Made by a program: the position numbers and the translations under genes
Notes under the pieces: model-generated
What the model saw: the letters and a program-made list of their open reading frames with translations, nothing else
What the model was told of the DNA's origin: nothing
Databases searched by the model: none
Part shown: one piece after another, positions 1 through 5,061 of the stretch
How the letters are laid out: each line of letters begins with the position of its first letter
Position numbering within the stretch: the stretch's first letter is position 1
DNA from: a virus
Taxonomy: Duplodnaviria; Heunggongvirae; Uroviricota; Caudoviricetes
Length of the DNA stretch: 5,061 bases
Direction: 5' to 3' (one strand)
Virus record (IMG/VR): IMGVR_UViG_2548876865_000015

Positions 1-1026
1 TTACTTGGAATATTTTCTTGGAATATTTTCAGGTAACGGGACATCAAGTGTTGGTGAAACTTTAACCTTCCTGTCATAGATTAGCACTTGCCCTTCGGTT
101 TTGTGACCAGAGAAAAGTTGCTTATCACGGCTGCTTCCTTCATAGTCTGAAATTCCTTTCGCCTTCAGATCATGAAAGGTGAAGTCGGTTAAAATACCTG
201 AAATTTTTCCAGCACGATTTCTTGCTTCTACCCACATTTCGTTAAAGCCTTTGTACATATATCGGTTGCCGTATTGATTGCTGATCACATAGGCAGATTT
301 TGGTAACTGTTTTGCTTTTTCGATCGCTGCCTGTAATCGTGGACTCCATGCTTTTATCTGTTTTTTTCCGGTTTTCCCTTGCTGGATGAATATCCCGTCG
401 TTTCCAATCTGTTCCCATTTCAGCGATAACACATCGGAAACCCTCGCTGCACACAGATAGGCAATTTCCATTGCGATAAAAACAGGAAGAGGTGCAACGC
501 TTAATACTGCCTGGTATTCTTTGTCGGTTACATATCGTTCGCGGTTTTTGGCCTTGAATTTACTTACACCTGCACATGGGTTAGCCTTGACGTACCCTCG
601 CTCATACCCCCAACTGTAAACACGGGACATACTGCTTTTTTCATGGTTGGCTTGCGTTTTACTCTGCTCCCCTCTTTTGTCCATGTATCGACGGATGTGT
701 TCTGGTTTTATGGAATCCGCTGGTACCTTACCGAATACGGCAAGCAACTTTTTTTGATGTTGCAGATAATCTTTTTGTGTTCTTGGACTAAGGTCACTGT
801 AATAGGCGCTGGCGAGGAATTTTTCCCACAAGCGACCGAATGTCATTGCACGATCGCGATTATTTACAGTTTCCTCATACTTTTTCCATAAAGCAGCTAA
901 ACCATCCTTGATGGCGGTTAGTGTGACAGATTCTCTGGATGTTGGTTTCCATACATAACTATATTTATTTGGGTATACATTTGGAGGTAATTTTTCGTGT
1001 TCAGGATTTTTCCTTCGTCTTCCCAT
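1..1026 (-). CDS. int: Phage tyrosine integrase (lambda Int family), apparently full length, 341 aa
   Basis: Complete ORF from ATG at 1026..1024 to TAA at 3..1. The N-terminus MGRRRKNPEHEKLPPNVY resembles the arm-binding N-terminus of lambda-type Int. Core signatures are readable in the translation: R195 (AARVSD), K218 (QGKTG), H285 (FTFHDLK), H308 (SGHKT) and Y317 (VLIYDRK), with the Tyr nine residues after GHK as in lambda Int. Residue 288 is Lys where box II normally has Arg. Confidence 0.9.
   Translation of the reverse strand: MGRRRKNPEHEKLPPNVYPNKYSYVWKPTSRESVTLTAIKDGLAALWKKYEETVNNRDRAMTFGRLWEKFLASAYYSDLSPRTQKDYLQHQKKLLAVFGKVPADSIKPEHIRRYMDKRGEQSKTQANHEKSSMSRVYSWGYERGYVKANPCAGVSKFKAKNRERYVTDKEYQAVLSVAPLPVFIAMEIAYLCAARVSDVLSLKWEQIGNDGIFIQQGKTGKKQIKAWSPRLQAAIEKAKQLPKSAYVISNQYGNRYMYKGFNEMWVEARNRAGKISGILTDFTFHDLKAKGISDYEGSSRDKQLFSGHKTEGQVLIYDRKVKVSPTLDVPLPENIPRKYSK
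4..30. repeat. Perfect tandem direct repeat, 13-bp unit in two copies (CTTGGAATATTTTC at 4..17 and 17..30)
   Basis: Read directly: ttggaatattttc at 5..17 and again at 18..30. It lies in the last codons of int (…PENIPRKYSK stop), next to where the att site is expected. Confidence 0.9.
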
Positions 1027-1229
1027 CAGATCGCACCAAAATTCGGCTCTACCTCGCGTGGTGGTAAAGTTTTATTGCAGGTAAATAGATCCCGGCTGAC
1101 AATCGGTTTGCCACTACGATTGGTATAGAACGGAAGCCCGTTTTCCATTAACCATTTTCGCTGGTGGCTTGCATATTTGCAGCCCGTTAATATTAGCAAT
1201 TCATCTTCGGTTAAAAATAAGCTGCTCAT
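1026..1229 (-). CDS. Excisionase-like small protein (DUF4224-type), 67 aa
   Basis: ORF from ATG at 1229..1227 to TGA at 1028..1026. Its stop overlaps the int start codon by one base (TGATG), and it sits immediately upstream of int. The stretch LTEDELLILTGCKYASHQRKWLMENGLPF fits the pattern I remember for the phage DUF4224 family. The Xis role is assigned by position and family, not shown. Confidence 0.65.
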   Translation of the reverse strand: MSSLFLTEDELLILTGCKYASHQRKWLMENGLPFYTNRSGKPIVSRDLFTCNKTLPPREVEPNFGAI

Positions 1230-1246
1230 AGCTATATCTCATAACC

Positions 1247-1272
1247 GCCGCTAACTATATACGGTTAGCGGC
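1247..1272 (-). repeat. Perfect 9-bp inverted repeat (hairpin, 8-nt loop) in the intergenic region between the nuclease and the xis-like gene
   Basis: gccgctaac at 1247..1255 and gttagcggc at 1264..1272 are exact reverse complements around the loop tatatacg. No U-tract follows on either strand, so it is not a canonical intrinsic terminator. Confidence 0.6.
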
Positions 1273-1287
1273 AATTAGGGTTGAACA

Positions 1288-3729
1288 TTAAAAATCAGCC
1301 TGACTCGGGATCAGTTTTTGCCAGATAGCTGAAACGTATTTTGCCTGGTAACGAGCGTCATCAAGTGCATTATGGCGCTCACCTTCGAATGGGATAGCAG
1401 TTCTGGCATCGAAGTCTATGGCTTTCCCCAGCTCAACGATTGTGCGTACATCGCGATCGTTGCAGTAGCGCCATGGGCAGGGGATACCCTGTCGTTCGTA
1501 TGAACGGCGTAAAATCACGTTGTCGAAGTTGGCCCCATTACCCCAGACCTGAACAAAAAATTCACCGGAGTTTTCGTCGATAAATTCCCGCAATTGCAGT
1601 AGTGCATCATCTAACGGGATTTCATCGGTCATAATGGCAGACTGCGCTTCACGTGATTGCTTCAGCCACCATTTAATGACGTCACGATCAATGACTCCGC
1701 CAGCAGTATCCAGATCGATGGTCTTGCTAAATTCCGGTCCCATATCTCCGGTTTGTGGATCGAAAAATATTGCGCCTATTGAGATAATCGGGGCATCGGG
1801 ATTTTTTCCCATGGTTTCAAGGTCGATCATCAGATGAATCCCCGCTCTGCTGGTGGATGTGAGCTTATGATGACCATTCACCTTAATTAAGGGATCTGTC
1901 GCCTCGCCAGTTTTATTATCGCTGGCGTGATGCTGATTGCCGCCAGGGTTCTCCTTGTGTGGATGTTCAGCGCCTTCCATTTCCTCCGGATCATTTTCCT
2001 GAACTTCAACCTGATTCTCTTCATCGAATGTTTCCTGGTATGTTGCGTCGCCCATCACCGCGCCACAATCAGGGCAGTTGCCGCCACCGCTCTGACCGCA
2101 GGCGGTGCAGACTTTTTCCGGTTCCTGTTGCGCTACTGGTTCGGATTGTTTCGTTTCTGGCTCGTTTTGTAACGCATTTGGGCTGTTTTGTTCCGCTTTT
2201 TGGTCGTTCCGTTCCGATTCATGCTGGTTCTGGTTCACAGAATCGCGAGTCTGGATCCCCTTGACCCATTTCGGATCATTAGGGTCGCTAATCCCCTCAA
2301 CAAATTCACCACGCGATACAGCAAGTAACTTATCGGCGTCAGGCTGGCTGATATTGGCTGCCTGCATAATTTTGTTTACTTCGTCAGCGGTGACTTTTAC
2401 TTGGTTAGCGGAACTCACCTGCGACTGAGCATCCAGCGACTGCGCGTTCTGGCCATGTTCAGTTGTATCCGGTTCCATTGTTTCAGTTGTTGCCTGTTCA
2501 CCTGCCATTGCGTCAGATGGTTGTGGTTTTTCTTCTTCTGTTTCACGCTCAGTAACCACCTCGCGGTTAATTTCTTCCAGGATATCTTTTTCCGGCGTAT
2601 GCCGGGCAGCTGTGAGAGTTTCCTTGCTGGGGTTCTCGTGATTAGTTTCCGTCAAATAGGCGTTGATATACCCCTGAAGGCGTCCCGGGTAGTGATAAAA
2701 TTCAGGGTGTGCGCTTCGGATAAGTGCAAAAATAGCGGCGCGGGAATAGTCCAGAATACCCGGGGTTGCACGAAGTGCTGCGGACCATTCTTTGAACGGA
2801 CTTTCTTTGTTCAGGACTACTTCTTTTGCGCGACGATAAACGCTGCCCGGAATTTCATAAATATTAAAATCCATCGGAAGTGTGGCTGCTGCAATCTCCA
2901 CATCCAGTGTGTCGAGGGTGTGTACTAAATTCGGATTGCGATCGGTTTTGTTCCCACCGCCAGCATTAGCACCGGAAGCCGTGCGGGTGATGCGTGAAAC
3001 ACGATTTCCTTTCATCCACTCTTTTGTCAGCAGACCCCGATCAGTGTAGTCAGCGTCCAGGTATGCTTCGAAAAAAGCAGTTATTAGTCCCAGGTCTGAA
3101 TTACCAGGATTAGGGAAAACTTTGTCAGTGTCACGAACCAGTTTGTGGAGGTCGCGAATCTCCAGCGAGTCGAGCAGACTGGTTTTATGCGAAATAGCCA
3201 GGGCAGTAACAGCCGGTAGTTCTTCAGCCCGTGCAATGTGTAATGCCTGGAGTTCGTCGCGTGAAACGTGCGTTACTGGTTTTTCGCTGCCGTGTTGAGC
3301 AAGCCAACGAATGGGCAGTTCCTGACCGGAGACAGGCAGAAGCATGCTCTCCTCAATCTCAGTCATGTCTTCGCCGTTGATGTTGGTATTGTCAGTGCTG
3401 GCTGGTTTGTCCTGAACAGAGGGGGAAGGGCCGATAAATGTCATTGTGATGCCATCTTTCCCGCCTTTTTCATAGCGGTTGCAGAATTCAGTATCAAACA
3501 CGCCTTCTGGCGGAAGGTCGTCAACAACGGGCAAATTGACGCGGACGGGTTTTTTAAAGTCGTCTTCATCATAATCGTTGTCATCCATTGCGGTAATGCA
3601 GCGGGAGATTGCAACAGATAATTTTTTTGTTGTAGTCCAGTAAAAACCACCTTTAATTCCCAGGCGTTTTCTTACTTTGTCATTTTTTGCTTCGCAATAT
3701 AGTGCAAATTCTTCTTTATCAGTGCTCAT
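1288..3729 (-). CDS. Large prophage nuclease: RecE (exodeoxyribonuclease VIII)-like N-terminal region, acidic linker, zinc ribbon, and C-terminal DEDDh (DnaQ-like) 3'-5' exonuclease domain; 813 aa
   Basis: ORF from ATG at 3729..3727 to TAA at 1290..1288, with a GAGG Shine-Dalgarno 9 nt upstream of the ATG. The three DEDDh motifs are directly readable in the C-terminal translation: Exo I IHLMIDLETMG (D636, E638), Exo II VWGNGANFDNVIL (D736), Exo III HNALDDARYQAKY (H786, D791). Residues about 385-620 are acidic and Gln/Glu/Thr-rich, and contain CTACGQSGGGNCPDCG (C541, C544, C552, C555). The N-terminal roughly 380 aa resemble, from memory, the non-catalytic N-terminal part of Rac RecE and the truncated Qin YdfE. 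Confidence 0.85.
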   Translation of the reverse strand: MSTDKEEFALYCEAKNDKVRKRLGIKGGFYWTTTKKLSVAISRCITAMDDNDYDEDDFKKPVRVNLPVVDDLPPEGVFDTEFCNRYEKGGKDGITMTFIGPSPSVQDKPASTDNTNINGEDMTEIEESMLLPVSGQELPIRWLAQHGSEKPVTHVSRDELQALHIARAEELPAVTALAISHKTSLLDSLEIRDLHKLVRDTDKVFPNPGNSDLGLITAFFEAYLDADYTDRGLLTKEWMKGNRVSRITRTASGANAGGGNKTDRNPNLVHTLDTLDVEIAAATLPMDFNIYEIPGSVYRRAKEVVLNKESPFKEWSAALRATPGILDYSRAAIFALIRSAHPEFYHYPGRLQGYINAYLTETNHENPSKETLTAARHTPEKDILEEINREVVTERETEEEKPQPSDAMAGEQATTETMEPDTTEHGQNAQSLDAQSQVSSANQVKVTADEVNKIMQAANISQPDADKLLAVSRGEFVEGISDPNDPKWVKGIQTRDSVNQNQHESERNDQKAEQNSPNALQNEPETKQSEPVAQQEPEKVCTACGQSGGGNCPDCGAVMGDATYQETFDEENQVEVQENDPEEMEGAEHPHKENPGGNQHHASDNKTGEATDPLIKVNGHHKLTSTSRAGIHLMIDLETMGKNPDAPIISIGAIFFDPQTGDMGPEFSKTIDLDTAGGVIDRDVIKWWLKQSREAQSAIMTDEIPLDDALLQLREFIDENSGEFFVQVWGNGANFDNVILRRSYERQGIPCPWRYCNDRDVRTIVELGKAIDFDARTAIPFEGERHNALDDARYQAKYVSAIWQKLIPSQADF
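1330..1848 (-). other. DEDDh 3'-5' exonuclease domain (protein residues about 628-800) inside the 813-aa CDS
   Basis: Motif codons map to D636 at 1824..1822, E638 at 1818..1816, D736 at 1524..1522, H786 at 1374..1372 and D791 at 1359..1357. Spacing and order match DnaQ-like DEDDh exonucleases. Confidence 0.8.
2065..2109 (-). other. CxxC-x7-CxxC zinc-ribbon-like motif inside the 813-aa CDS
   Basis: The translation CTACGQSGGGNCPDCG was confirmed by reverse-complementing 2065..2109. It sits inside the low-complexity linker between the N-terminal region and the exonuclease domain. Confidence 0.6.
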
Positions 3730-3822
3730 TATTGGTAAACCTCATCACAGATTTAAGGGTGAACAAATCTCTGCCATTGCTGACATATAAGAATGAAACT
3801 GGATATTTATTACGGTGCTGTT

Positions 3823-4014
3823 TTAAAATCCTGCCGGGATTTCGTTATTATCCTGGTGAATAACTTTATCGACCGGATAACAGTTGCCTGGAATTTTCTG
3901 TTCGGTTGCTGCTGCCATACATTCCTGCATTGTTCTGTGAACACTGACTGCAATATCAACTGGCTCTCCGGAAACAAGAAAAACCGTCAGAATAAGTGCA
4001 AATACTGGATTCAT
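3823..4014 (-). CDS. ydfD: YdfD-like small protein, 63 aa, with N-terminal hydrophobic segment (Qin YdfD is reported to induce lysis)
   Basis: I favour the ATG at 4014..4012 because it overlaps the upstream stop as ATGA and has an AAGGA Shine-Dalgarno 8 nt upstream; the longest ORF starts at 4068 but would overlap the upstream gene by 58 nt. Stop is TAA at 3825..3823. The product MNPVFALILTVFLVSGEPVDIAVSV... has a hydrophobic N-terminus. Identity with E. coli K-12 YdfD is recalled from memory and needs BLASTP. Confidence 0.6.
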   Translation of the reverse strand: MNPVFALILTVFLVSGEPVDIAVSVHRTMQECMAAATEQKIPGNCYPVDKVIHQDNNEIPAGF

Positions 4015-4199
4015 TGTGCACATCCTTTTGGCATCAGACGTAAACGGGCCAGCATTGAAACAATGCATACTTTATTTAATAACTCCCGTTCGTGTTTTCT
4101 TTTGTTAATGGCATCTTCAGTAAATACAGGATTACTGATAGTGACACCAATTTCAAAACAACCTTCAGACGTATTAACGTTTGGTAATAACGTTTTCAT
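4011..4199 (-). CDS. dicB: DicB-like cell-division inhibitor, 62 aa
   Basis: ORF from ATG at 4199..4197 to TGA at 4013..4011, with a GAGGA Shine-Dalgarno 7 nt upstream that overlaps the stop of the preceding gene. The product MKTLLPNVNTSEGCFEIGVTISNPVFTEDAINKRK...MLARLRLMPKGCAQ matches my memory of K-12 DicB (62 aa) almost residue for residue, and it lies directly upstream of the YdfD-like gene as in Qin. Confidence 0.7.
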   Translation of the reverse strand: MKTLLPNVNTSEGCFEIGVTISNPVFTEDAINKRKHERELLNKVCIVSMLARLRLMPKGCAQ

Positions 4200-4209
4200 T
4201 ATCGCGTCC

Positions 4210-4767
4210 TCAACAATGAATTTTTAGTAATTGCTCCACAGTCATATTTTTAATTGCGCTCCGGTTTACAAGAGTCCAGCCTTGTTTCTCCAGATAAAAC
4301 TGGAAGGTATCCAGGGTGCAGACCATTGCACCATCAGGAACGGTTTCAGTGAATTTGATATTGCCGTGTTCGTCGAGACGGATAACCAGGGTACGTCCGT
4401 CCCCGTGAATCATTTTGTCGGGAGACGGGGCGTTATTCTGGCGCAGTTCTTTCTCCATGCGATCGAACTCAGCGATGTAGGCTTCTTTAAATGCAGCGGC
4501 TTTTTTGCCGGTGAAACCCATCACCAGGAAAACGAAGCCGTTTTTGGTGATTTGGTACATAGGGAGTTTGCGCCCGGTTGAGTCGGTATATTCACTGGGC
4601 GAAAAATTTCGCTCAGTGAATTCCGCTGAACAGTCTAGACGTGAAATTTTTGCCAGTACATCTTTGTGTGGTTTCCGGAAATACTCGGCAACAGCTAAAG
4701 AGGATGTAACAGCACGCCCATTGGCGATAGTAATTTCAGGGTGAGAAAGGGCAGGGATAGTAGCCAT
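4210..4767 (-). CDS. Rha-family phage regulatory protein with an uncharacterised C-terminal region of about 80 aa; 185 aa from the favoured start
   Basis: Stop is TGA at 4212..4210. The Rha signature is clear: RAVTSSLAVAEYFRKPHKDVLAKISRL ... PMYQITKNGFVFLVMGFTGKKAAAFKEAYIAEFDRME. I favour the ATG at 4767..4765 (MATIPALSHPEITIANGRAVTSS) because GGAGG at 4780..4776 lies 8 nt upstream and Rha domains normally sit at the extreme N-terminus. Alternative starts are 4794 and 4782. The longest ORF runs in frame to the window edge at 5061 (283 aa) and may be what an automated annotation calls. Confidence 0.7.
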   Translation of the reverse strand: MATIPALSHPEITIANGRAVTSSLAVAEYFRKPHKDVLAKISRLDCSAEFTERNFSPSEYTDSTGRKLPMYQITKNGFVFLVMGFTGKKAAAFKEAYIAEFDRMEKELRQNNAPSPDKMIHGDGRTLVIRLDEHGNIKFTETVPDGAMVCTLDTFQFYLEKQGWTLVNRSAIKNMTVEQLLKIHC

Positions 4768-4797
4768 GATGGCAGCCTCCATGATGAATTTCATTAA

Positions 4798-4903
4798 CTC
4801 ACCACCAGAGGTAGCAATCTCATGGGTGGTGAGACGCACAGGGTTGCTACAACCGGTCATCATGGAACCCGGCCAGCCTTGCGGCTGCCCTGCACGCCCC
4901 ACC
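4798..4903 (-). promoter_or_regulatory. Candidate structured RNA leader upstream of the Rha gene, with mutually exclusive helices
   Basis: On the minus-sense RNA, GGUGGGGCGUGCAGGG (from 4903..4888) can pair with CCCUGUGCGUCUCACC (from 4843..4828) over 16 contiguous base pairs: 12 Watson-Crick and 4 G-U. The same pairs are C-A mismatches on the plus sense. The enclosed loop holds a 5-bp hairpin capped by a GCAA tetraloop (4887..4874). The 3' part CUCACCACC (4833..4825) can instead pair perfectly with GGUGGUGAG (4806..4798), which is the Shine-Dalgarno-like sequence 3 nt upstream of the ATG at 4794. Confidence 0.3.
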
Positions 4904-4931
4904 ATAATCTGAATGTGGCTGTGCATTACGC

Positions 4932-4956
4932 ATAAAAAAACCGCCTGAGCGCGGTT
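4932..4956 (-). terminator. Weak candidate intrinsic terminator (short hairpin followed by a U-run) on the minus strand
   Basis: Minus-sense AACCGC-GCUCAG-GCGGUU followed by UUUUUAUG. The stem has only 4 G-C pairs plus 2 A-U pairs and a 6-nt loop, so it is marginal. It falls inside the N-terminal extension of the longest Rha ORF. Confidence 0.25.
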
Positions 4957-5061
4957 ATGCGCCATGATGAACATCGGGGTAGCAATCCCGGCACCCGCTT
5001 TATGAGGTGCAGGTGCACTATAATTCCACCCGTTCTGGTTTTCAATAGCTACATTCAACAT

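Follow-up and report, generated by a model that had tools for sequence, protein, structure and literature searches.

The CI RNA of satellite phage P4 acts through premature transcription termination of the replication operon, with no masking of a ribosome-binding site, and its cargo consists of replication genes. The c4 antisense RNA of the P1/P7 immI operon was, reportedly, described by Citron and Schuster in 1990. For P1 c4, RNase P processing and translational repression have been shown; the mechanism is given as cited in PMC8198154 and in Additional file 1 of Weinberg 2010, and the RNase P step is taken from secondary citations and from the P1 annotation. A C4 RNA is expected to be cut from a longer precursor by RNase P at a length of ~77 nt. 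The corresponding region of Gifsy-1, in Salmonella, has been analyzed as an IsrK system. A processed RNA of ~80 nt (STnc1160) was detected there (Hershko-Shalev et al. 2016, PMC4825925) and IsrK supplied in trans raises anrP translation more than 100-fold; Hfq binding by isrK RNA, and its trans activation of the translation of the read-through mRNA, are known only for Gifsy-1 (PMC4825925). The published model stresses translation of a leader ORF (orf45) and refolding in cis, rather than C4-type antisense repression, and constitutive orf45/STnc1160 failed to relieve IsrK toxicity (PMC4825925); both points speak against the C4 reading given below.

The window considered here (the entire 5,061-nucleotide stretch of IMG/VR virus record IMGVR_UViG_2548876865_000015, Caudoviricetes) carries on its minus strand a locus of this already known kind, with the layout of the P1/P7 immI operon. 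A previous, sequence-only reading had singled out a 16-bp helix that is available to the minus-sense transcript and proposed that it was part of a translational switch. The helix is real but ordinary, not the mark of a new switch: it very probably closes an antisense RNA of the C4/CI type, which lies in the leader of rha, an antirepressor-like gene of a lambdoid prophage of E. coli type. RNAs of this type serve phage immunity by blocking the ribosome-binding site of an antirepressor-like gene downstream; the RNA repressors of P1/P7 immI, of P4 immunity and of the Gifsy-1 isrK-orf45-anrP system belong here, and the a1-b1/isrK element and the a2-b2 targets that flank C4 in the window are those of the same systems. 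E. coli strain 48 (NZ_CP166879) carries this prophage at 99.5% identity. An Rfam search, which the reading had recommended, returns the C4 model (RF01695) at 4909-4822(-) with 77.9 bits (threshold 45, E = 1.2e-14) and all of its positions (1-87 of 87) matched, and the isrK model immediately upstream. The features of the locus are collected in Table 1.

Table 1. Features of the isrK/C4 leader and of the genes that follow it (positions in the window; MFE, minimum free energy structure)
Feature	Position	Strand	Description and basis
Sigma-70 promoter (predicted) for the isrK/C4 leader	5017..5045	(-)	TTGAAA, 17-nt spacer, TATAGT
isrK-type small RNA	4934..5010	(-)	Rfam RF01394, 64.7 bits (threshold 50)
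Decoy site a1	4985-4979	(-)	in hairpin loop; 7-nt complement to a'
Decoy site b1	4970-4962	(-)	9-nt complement to b'
Intrinsic terminator of the isrK-type RNA	stem 4956-4939, U run to 4934	(-)	terminator scan
C4 antisense RNA gene	4822..4909	(-)	RF01695 match; MFE = Rfam structure; covariation
Closing helix P1 of C4	4904-4888 with 4827-4843	(-)	17 bp, 4 G.U; Rfam model
Hairpin P2	4874..4887	(-)	4887-4883 / 4874-4878, GCAA tetraloop 4882-4879; inside P1
Hairpin P3	4852..4873	(-)	4873-4869 / 4852-4856, 12-nt loop carrying b' (4866-4857); inside P1
Antisense segment a'	4844..4850	(-)	GUAGCAA, unpaired C4 junction; complementarity
Alternative hairpin	4798..4833	(-)	folding, covariation, homologues, phage P1, Gifsy-1, P4
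Target site b2 and Shine-Dalgarno	4776..4787	(-)	b2 (4787-4778) overlaps GGAGG (4780-4776); complement of b' loop
rha	4210..4767	(-)	Rha-family regulator, antirepressor-like, 185 aa; most probable start ATG 4767
dicB	4199-4011	(-)	after rha; ydfD next

The predicted fold has the closing helix, the two hairpins and the tetraloop of a C4 RNA, and these covary among homologues, as described below. Without the U4904-A4827 pair the closing helix is exactly the 16 bp first noticed (4903-4888 / 4843-4828), and its four G.U or U.G pairs (4899/4832, 4897/4834, 4894/4837 and 4893/4838) become A-C or C-A oppositions on the plus strand. The GCAA-capped hairpin inside it had also been seen correctly, though the second hairpin, P3, had gone unmentioned; GNRA and UNCG loops are listed as typical of the family in Additional file 1 of Weinberg 2010. 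In isolation, the 88-nt minus-strand RNA has exactly the Rfam C4 structure as its MFE fold (-46.3 kcal/mol, z = -3.54 against dinucleotide shuffles, of which 1 in 200 did as well). The plus strand of the same 88 nt reaches only -31.0 kcal/mol, z = -0.56, and the strand asymmetry is therefore real: this is a strand-specific RNA under selection for pairing, as had been argued from the G.U pairs. Set against the annotated mature ends of phage P1, the AUUAU|GG junction and the ACC tail keep their position, and from those ends a mature C4 of ~79 nt (4903-4825) that terminates in an unpaired ACC is predicted. A tRNA/tmRNA scan of the window found no match; the acceptor-like stem does not belong to a tRNA gene.

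The antisense segments of the RNA have their targets immediately downstream. The junction segment a' (4850-4844) is complementary over 7 nt to a2 (4817-4811), and the b' loop to b2 over 10 nt of Watson-Crick pairs, or 11 nt with one G.U; b2 falls on the ribosome-binding site of the gene that follows, where GGAGG lies 8 nt before ATG 4767. The motif GGAG(G)-N7-10-ATGGC recurs in 58 of 87 loci and its equivalent here is 4780-4765. The sequence-only reading had instead taken GGUGGUGAG as the ribosome-binding region of an ATG at 4794, an assignment that does not survive: that codon lies within a spacer that is variable among homologues and usually has no ATG. The Rha domain of Pfam and TIGRFAM begins at residues 110-119 of the 283-aa ORF that runs through the region, and the starts of anrP in Gifsy-1 and of icd in P1 occupy the position equivalent to ATG 4767. 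Judged by these sequence comparisons, rha most probably starts at ATG 4767, not at ATG 4794. Its product scores 106.6 bits with Pfam Rha and matches PHROG antirepressor families; compared with P1 Ant1 it gives no significant match, and its similarity to Gifsy-1 AnrP is weak (E = 0.007), the two being at most distantly related. Since it is close to neither Ant nor AnrP, an antirepressor role is presumed from the family name and the PHROG matches, and the word should be taken as a family-level guess. The placement of the helix at the head of a rha-dicB-ydfD block, on the other hand, was correct from the outset.

Upstream of C4, the predicted promoter matches the consensus at 10 of 12 positions, and its predicted start, at ~5010, agrees with where the Rfam isrK match begins. 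The isrK family is defined by its model score together with two 5' hairpins and a terminal intrinsic terminator, and the isrK-type RNA of the window conforms to it, with its terminator located by the scan. It also holds, 5' of C4, the second copy of the targets (a1 and b1), recognized by direct complementarity to a' and b'; the score of the Rfam c4-a1b1 model, 19.6, falls short of its threshold of 46.7 and counts against the reading, although the isrK model that overlaps it passes.

Covariation was scored in 68 distinct homologues, in a MAFFT alignment that had not been fitted to any structure, with slid controls. It is abundant, and the region is not conserved at the amino-acid level (see below); both findings that the sequence-only reading had named as refuting it therefore fail to appear. 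In the C4 structure 97.3% of cells are paired, 17 of the 27 pairs have changed on both sides, and the covariation score is 0.490, compared with at most 0.104 for the slid controls. Both-sided changes are found in 12 of the 17 pairs of the closing helix, and compensatory changes in all five pairs of hairpin P2; the P3 stem is invariant because the pattern used to search for homologues required it. The a'/a2 pairing is kept in 98% of cases, with compensation at five of seven positions. Compensatory changes also mark b'/b2, whether judged from the MAFFT alignment, from alignment-free offsets or by RNAalifold; the figure of only 73.6% paired in MAFFT arises because the alignment of distant homologues misplaces some b2 sites, and the alignment-free offsets are cleaner. 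In the RNAalifold consensus of the whole leader, a' finds its partner in a2, and b' in b2 together with GGAGG, in cis. This happens because these segments co-vary, and covariation cannot tell cis from trans action. An anti-Shine-Dalgarno segment, CCUCU at 4811-4807, was tried as a partner of GGAGG and set aside: 68.5% paired against 54% when slid, with covariation of 0.224 against 0.203, it looks like the controls.

The second fold that the sequence-only reading had pointed to also exists. CUCACCACC (4833-4825), made up of the closing helix's 3' strand and the ACC tail, forms a perfect 9-bp stem with GGUGGUGAG (4806-4798); 4821-4819 pairs with 4810-4808 in an inner stem and a2 is held inside the loop. 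This hairpin and the bottom 6-7 bp of the helix that closes C4 exclude each other. The 54-nt segment 4843-4790 folds into it (-18.6 kcal/mol, z = -3.59), and so, as part of its MFE fold, does minus-sense 4960-4780, the stretch whose folding had been suggested. The MFE of the full 271-nt leader (-109.2 kcal/mol) combines the alternative hairpin with a cis a1b1:a'b' duplex; the C4-closed state comes to -106.8 kcal/mol. Folded in local context, closed C4 is favoured over the alternative by 5.8 kcal/mol, and the alternative may therefore be rarely populated. In the 68-homologue MAFFT alignment the alternative hairpin is 87.5% paired (at most 50.5% when slid), 11 of its 12 pairs show compensatory changes and its covariation score is 0.436 (at most 0.132 when slid). 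When no alignment is relied on, the hairpin with a2 in its loop is found in 67 of 67 homologues; it is present in phage P1 and Gifsy-1 as well and, by eye, in P4. The RNAalifold consensus of the whole leader, computed on a low-diversity subset, does not select it. The two mutually exclusive folds thus stand, both of them conserved; what the alternative helix covers is not the ribosome-binding region, as had been supposed. It is conserved and competes with the lower part of the closing stem, placing a2 in a loop and sequestering the ACC tail, and it probably marks an unprocessed precursor conformation in which a1-b1 is paired in cis with a'-b'.

The alternative hairpin might also be an attenuator or terminator that is set by C4 folding or binding, so that control would be by premature termination of the P4 type and not of translation. 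P4 and N15 do use RNAs of the C4 family to cause termination, and in some homologues GGUU or UUUU follows the arm. Weinberg et al. (2010), moreover, noted the alternative hairpin in part: at several C4 loci they saw a predicted terminator whose 5' half coincides with the 3' half of helix P1, and they suggested a possible role in cis. In the window, it is UUAAUGAAAUU that follows the arm, with no U tract, and the terminator scan found the isrK terminator alone. The constant presence of a2 in the loop fits target presentation better than termination, and b2 covers the Shine-Dalgarno sequence directly. We consider termination at this hairpin improbable.

Conservation of the region could, alternatively, come from protein coding: the region would encode the N-terminal 'Ash' domain of the 283-aa Rha protein that PGAP annotates, and RNA structure would be incidental. 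The ORF opens at ATG 5061, upstream of the leader promoter. PGAP annotates it (852 nt) in a 99.5% identical E. coli locus, Pfam Phage_ASH matches residues 14-109 and several PHROG families cover the region. In 56 of 58 loci no stop interrupts the frame in phase with the downstream start over at least 300 nt upstream of it; the remaining frames contain, on average, 4.1 and 2.4 stops. The two exceptional loci have the upstream ORF open in another frame. In Gifsy-1, orf45 occupies the same place and is translated, coupled to anrP (PMC4825925). Against this, codon-position periodicity is absent (entropies 0.56, 0.55 and 0.58). From the C4 AUG to the rha AUG, amino-acid identity (0.73) is below nucleotide identity (0.83), and the region is not conserved at the amino-acid level; the downstream gene, for comparison, has an amino-acid identity of 0.84 at the same nucleotide identity of 0.83. 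Compensatory double substitutions in the helices alter the peptide, more distant homologues have indels that are not multiples of three, and the ORF contains a strong promoter as well as a terminator. The old P4 'cI protein' CDS, which also matches Phage_ASH, contains a C4 match, and P4 cI is an RNA. The ORF is stop-free in this region yet without amino-acid-level selection: the region is likely to be translated through as a leader ORF but unlikely to yield a folded Ash domain, and a purely protein-coding origin of the conservation is very hard to credit.

Equally hard to sustain is a switch acting purely in cis, in which the 9-bp helix would occlude or free GGUGGUGAG, 3 nt before ATG 4794, as the ribosome-binding region of that start: both pairings exist, exclude each other and are conserved, but the ATG falls in the variable spacer, the conserved start signal corresponds to 4780-4765, the 3' arm of the alternative stem co-varies with the 3' strand of C4 and not with Shine-Dalgarno function, and the element has the score and the two target sites of a complete trans-acting C4 RNA. 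The alternative helix contains neither the conserved Shine-Dalgarno sequence nor the start codon; it is the C4 b' loop that covers the former. What remains of the proposed translational switch is a system for post-transcriptional control of the downstream gene, not as an unclassified cis switch but as a full-length member of the C4 family.

The family membership, structure, covariation, complementarities, promoter and terminator motifs and layout homology are established here, and from these, with function assigned by homology, we infer the molecular events at this locus and the part played by the alternative hairpin. The promoter at 5045-5017 would start a transcript near 5010. Most transcripts would stop at the leaky terminator (4956-4934), yielding a short IsrK-like RNA with a1 and b1; read-through RNA would comprise C4, then a2 and b2, then rha-dicB-ydfD. 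Its C4 segment would fold into a three-helix, tRNA-acceptor-like shape with an ACC end and be excised by RNase P at the predicted ends. The a' junction and the b' loop of the freed C4 would pair with a2 (4817-4811) and with b2 and the Shine-Dalgarno sequence (4787-4776), blocking rha translation and, probably by polarity, also lowering dicB and ydfD expression. The short a1-b1 RNA could titrate C4 and so lift the block.

Throughout the C4/CI family the competing hairpin could possibly serve as an inbuilt conformational gate, although we put this forward tentatively and regard it as rather doubtful. In one fold, a1-b1 would pair with a'-b' in cis while the hairpin hides the RNase P recognition elements and displays a2; with those elements hidden, no repressor would be released. 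In the other, C4 would be closed, excised and able to repress. This goes beyond the remark of Weinberg 2010 on terminator/P1 overlap 'in several cases', and the P1 and Gifsy-1 models consulted contain no such gate; in the Gifsy-1 paper (PMC4825925) the RNA is not called a homologue of C4, and neither a2-b2 nor the competing hairpin is discussed. If true, gating of C4 maturation would refine the switching model of RNA immunity modules, an incremental advance in a known system.

Picking the structured RNA by eye, from G.U asymmetry alone, was sound; the family has been known since 1990 and is curated in Rfam. The analysis also has some value for annotation, in that the PGAP 852-nt 'Rha family' CDS and the Pfam 'Ash' domain span a promoter, a terminator and two RNA genes. 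The locus also joins three literatures that are usually cited apart: P1 c4, P4 CI and Gifsy-1 IsrK.

P1/P7 c4 belongs to the same Rfam family and has the same three-helix fold. The annotated order in P1 is a1, b1, c4, a2, b2, icd; the window has the same order and then rha, with b2 covering the ribosome-binding site of the next gene in both. P1 also has a hairpin that competes with the closing stem and carries a2 in its loop, and its annotated mature ends give an ACC 3' tail that is conserved in the window. The a' and b' sequences differ between the two, and so, therefore, does their specificity. The first regulated gene in P1 is icd, followed by ant1/2, whereas in the window a Rha-family gene comes first, with dicB and ydfD after it; an isrK-type intrinsic terminator closes the a1-b1 segment, a feature stated here for the window alone; and the host element is a lambdoid prophage rather than a plasmid prophage.

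In the isrK-orf45(STnc1160)-anrP region of Gifsy-1, isrK (79.3 bits), C4 (69 bits) and anrP follow one another in the order and with the spacing of the window. The counterpart of the first AUG of orf45 (~+107) is AUG 4905, which lies within the 5' strand of the stem that closes C4; helix d-II of the published structure (PMC4825925) is the C4 closing stem, and its helix b-I is the cis a1b1:a'b' duplex that is also predicted in the MFE of the leader described here. The Gifsy-1 leader ORF ends at an AUGA that overlaps the anrP start, whereas that of the window is in frame with rha. A Shigella dysenteriae variant with a fusion of orf45 and anrP (287 aa; PMC4825925) is in the same situation as the 283-aa ORF.

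The P4 CI immunity region (seqA, seqB = CI, seqC) has the same order as the window, with a C4 match of 74.9 bits and an isrK-like match of 60.8 bits; there too, by eye, a 9-nt complement, GCUAUCGCC / GGCGAUAGC, links the 3' strand of the closing stem to the segment after an a2-like site.

The long helix on the minus strand of the window, taken in a sequence-only reading as one of two exclusive folds of a translational switch or processing site, is part of an ordinary member of an already known family, the C4 antisense RNAs. Over the whole window, Rfam places RF01695 (C4 antisense RNA) at 4909-4822(-) with a full-model match of 77.9 bits (gathering score 45, E = 1.2e-14) and RF01394 (isrK) directly upstream, at 5010-4934(-), with 64.7 bits vs 50; a tRNA/tmRNA scan of the window finds none. 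The 16-bp helix and its GCAA-capped hairpin are where that reading had put them, and the four wobbles (4899/4832, 4897/4834, 4894/4837 and 4893/4838) become A-C or C-A mismatches on the plus strand. In isolation, the 88-nt minus-strand RNA folds exactly into the C4 shape at -46.3 kcal/mol (z = -3.54), as against -31.0 kcal/mol (z = -0.56) for the plus strand of the same 88 nt.

According to Weinberg 2010 Additional file 1 and PMC8198154, the immI operon of P1/P7 is repressed by C4 RNA, whose a' and b' segments pair with a2 and b2 ahead of the next gene and also with the upstream a1 and b1. All of these parts, a', b', a2, b2, a1 and b1, are found in the window. The b2 target overlaps GGAGG at 4780-4776, which is separated by 8 nt from ATG 4767. 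The b' loop (4865-4858) has a further 8-nt complement in CAUCAUGG (4764-4771, minus), which spans the rha start ATG 4767 and is a possible third b site, confined to this specificity type.

Features of the C4 leader and of the neighbouring prophage arm (window coordinates)
Feature	Position	Strand	Detail
Sigma-70-type promoter, predicted	5045-5017	minus	TTGAAA, 17 nt, TATAGT; transcription start placed at ~5010
Intrinsic terminator, predicted	4956-4939 + U run	minus	3' end of isrK-like RNA
C4 closing helix	4904-4888 with 4827-4843	minus	17 bp, or 16 bp when the end U-A pair is not counted (4903-4888 / 4828-4843)
First enclosed hairpin	4887-4883 / 4874-4878	minus	GCAA cap 4882-4879
Second enclosed hairpin	4873-4869 / 4852-4856	minus	12-nt loop; absent from the sequence-only reading
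b'	4866-4857	minus	Second-hairpin loop; 10 nt complementary to b2 4787-4778, 9 nt to b1 4970-4962
a'	4850-4844	minus	GUAGCAA, C4 junction; complementary to a2 4817-4811 and a1 4985-4979
dicB	4011-4199	minus	
ydfD/DUF1482		minus	
813-aa exonuclease	1288-3729	minus	
DUF4224 excisionase-like ORF	1026-1229	minus	
Integrase	1-1026	minus	

Searching viral contigs with a pattern drawn from the conserved junction and second-hairpin core yields 120 loci, three of them false positives; 68 distinct sequences were aligned with MAFFT, with no fitting to any structure. Compensatory changes are abundant in the C4 helices of this alignment: 97.3% of cells are paired in the family structure, 17 of its 27 pairs change on both sides, and the covariation score is 0.490 (slid controls, ≤0.104). 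The antisense-target pairings covary as well. For a'/a2, 98% of cells are paired, with both-side changes at 5 of 7 pairs; b'/b2 changes in a coordinated manner across at least nine distinct loop sequences; counted jointly, the two score 0.505 (slid controls, ≤0.152). Two C4 cassettes occur together on some viral contigs: in one (L019; 9728-9760 and 11040-11072, minus, ~1.3 kb apart) a' and b' both differ between the cassettes, and in another (L104) only a' differs, b' being identical. To judge by their sequences, such double cassettes seem to give a single element two specificities of RNA immunity.

The 3' strand of the closing helix has a second partner: 4833-4825 pairs perfectly over 9 bp with 4806-4798, and this pairing is the minimum free energy (MFE) fold of the 54-nt segment taken alone (-18.6 kcal/mol, z = -3.59) and forms part of the MFE fold of minus-sense 4960-4780. 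In the 68 sequences 87.5% of the cells of this alternative hairpin are paired (slid controls, ≤50.5%), 11 of 12 pairs change on both sides, and the covariation score is 0.436 (slid controls, ≤0.132); co-varying arms include CCAUCACC / GGUGAUGG, GCCCGCCCC / GGGGCGGC and GUCUGACC / GGUCAGAC. Independently of any alignment, all 67 homologues with a recognisable a2 form the hairpin, its 5' arm being the closing-stem 3' strand and a2 lying in the loop. P1 (-18.5 kcal/mol) and Gifsy-1 (-18.1 kcal/mol) have it too, and in P4 a 9-nt complement is visible. The covariation of both structures and this distribution establish that the two mutually exclusive folds are real and under selection. For the full predicted leader, 5010-4740, the MFE structure (-109.2 kcal/mol) combines the cis a1b1:a'b' duplex with the alternative hairpin, and the form with C4 closed comes to -106.8 kcal/mol; once the 5' leader is removed, or downstream of the terminator, the closed form of C4 is the more stable by 1.4-5.8 kcal/mol. 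A terminator scan of the window finds none after the alternative-hairpin arm. The alternative hairpin would be the fold of the precursor state, displaying a2 in its loop as the isrK hairpin displays a1. It uses the ACC tail together with the closing stem's first six base pairs, and would therefore be incompatible with C4 processing; that it acts as a conformational gate of C4 maturation is possible but less likely than not. Judged against the more recent literature, it may be unpublished that the a2 hairpin is universal and co-varying and that it overlaps the ACC tail.

What the second fold occludes is another matter. GGUGGUGAG, proposed as the ribosome-binding site, forms the 3' arm in the a2 hairpin; ATG 4794, proposed as the start, sits in a spacer that varies among homologues and mostly lacks an ATG; and it is the b' loop of C4, not the alternative helix, that covers the Shine-Dalgarno. 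The sequence-only interpretation is partly supported: the structured RNA and its exclusive folds stand, and the ribosome-binding site and start codon assigned to them do not. The conserved start signal, carried by 58 of 87 loci, is GGAG(G)-N7-10-ATGGC and corresponds to 4780-4765. Within the 283-aa ORF the Rha domain starts at residues 110-119, 11-20 residues past Met99 (ATG 4767). In loci with different cargo, sequence similarity stops right past MAT(I/V)P, which seems to mark a recombination boundary just inside the gene start. One RNA leader is joined at that point to unrelated cargo in the window (4210-4767, minus), Gifsy-1 (L124 1038-1601) and P1 (L123 3688-4731): the window Rha is only distantly related to Gifsy-1 AnrP (E = 0.007) and unrelated to P1 Ant1.

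The whole 852-nt ORF is annotated by PGAP as a Rha-family protein, and Pfam PF10554 (Phage_ASH, 'Ash protein family') matches its residues 14-109, that is, translated isrK, C4 and a2-b2 (4768-5061, minus); the 46 codons from the C4 AUG to the rha AUG alone give 47.7 bits. In the window the leader frame covers 4767-5061 (minus). Among 58 enterobacterial loci, 56 have no stop codon in this frame over at least 300 nt ahead of the conserved start (two have a 1-nt indel before the ATG and a leader ORF open in another frame), and the two remaining frames average 4.1 and 2.4 stops. Conservation only as amino acids, which would have spoken against an RNA element, is not what is seen: amino-acid identity between the C4 AUG and the rha AUG is 0.73, below the nucleotide identity of 0.83 (0.84 at 0.83 in the true coding part downstream), and the leader has no codon periodicity (position entropies 0.56, 0.55 and 0.58). 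An open frame with these properties indicates that the peptide sequence is not under selection and that ribosome passage probably is, and suggests that the leader ORF, coupled with the cargo gene or fused to it, is kept for that passage. Since ATG 5061 lies upstream of the leader promoter, the 283-aa product could be made solely from transcripts starting further upstream. In P4, an obsolete 'cI protein' CDS (L125 8168-8584, minus) matches Phage_ASH and encloses the C4 match (74.9 bits). The 'Ash' family has the look of a protein model derived by translating a locus of non-coding RNA; judged against the more recent literature, this point too may be unpublished.

In the most likely mechanism, the short a1-b1 RNA would be made and some transcripts would read through; C4, excised from the read-through transcript, would mask a2 and b2 together with the Shine-Dalgarno of rha, and titration of C4 by the short RNA would relieve the block. 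By the P1-annotated ends, mature C4 would run from 4903 to 4825; its 5' G would be paired and its ACC tail unpaired, by analogy the form of an RNase P-type substrate (PMC2190699 cites work on the processing of P1 C4 by RNase P). Anatomy and conservation are read directly at the window locus; processing and repression have been demonstrated solely in P1, P4 and Gifsy-1 and would extend to it by analogy.

Of 5,426 complete E. coli genomes, 403 contain a near match to the leader, as do 220 phage records. The remainder of the window, 1-4199, has the minus-strand gene content typical of the left arm of a lambdoid prophage. Many E. coli genomes match positions 1-4224 at 99.7-99.8% identity, and the rha/C4 module (4225-5061), a mosaic segment distinct from this arm, reaches at least 99% identity in only four. 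In a 99.5% identical E. coli locus (L001), a sequence beyond the window's end (2760-2860) resembles the dicF small-RNA region and finishes in a terminator-like GCCGCCCUUUUU; it precedes the leader promoter by ~200 nt, and at gathering threshold Rfam gives no DicF match for it.

The C4 family, its targets and its typical tetraloops have already been described (Weinberg 2010 Additional file 1), and the annotated P1 genome has the same order as the window: a1, b1, c4, a2, b2, icd. Gifsy-1 (L124 798-1038) has Rfam matches to isrK at 79.3 bits, to c4-a1b1 at 48.1 bits and to C4 at 69 bits, with anrP next in line. That C4 match identifies the orf45 region and its processed STnc1160 RNA of about 80 nt (Hershko-Shalev et al., PMC4825925) as a C4 antisense RNA, and IsrK, on the same sequence grounds, as the a1-b1 decoy with its terminator. 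In the published accounts covered here, IsrK and c4 figure as two distinct systems; a 2025 review has them as separate entries and draws no link. Orf45 occupies the same place as the window leader ORF, is translated and coupled to anrP, shows conservation at the nucleotide but not the amino-acid level, and is reported fused to anrP in a Shigella variant (PMC4825925); the window leader ORF resembles both orf45, with its unselected peptide, and the fused Shigella form. Helix d-II of Hershko-Shalev et al. corresponds to the C4 closing stem and helix b-I to the cis a1-b1/a'-b' duplex, and the window leader, 5010-4740, folds into the same two states as their Gifsy-1 model.
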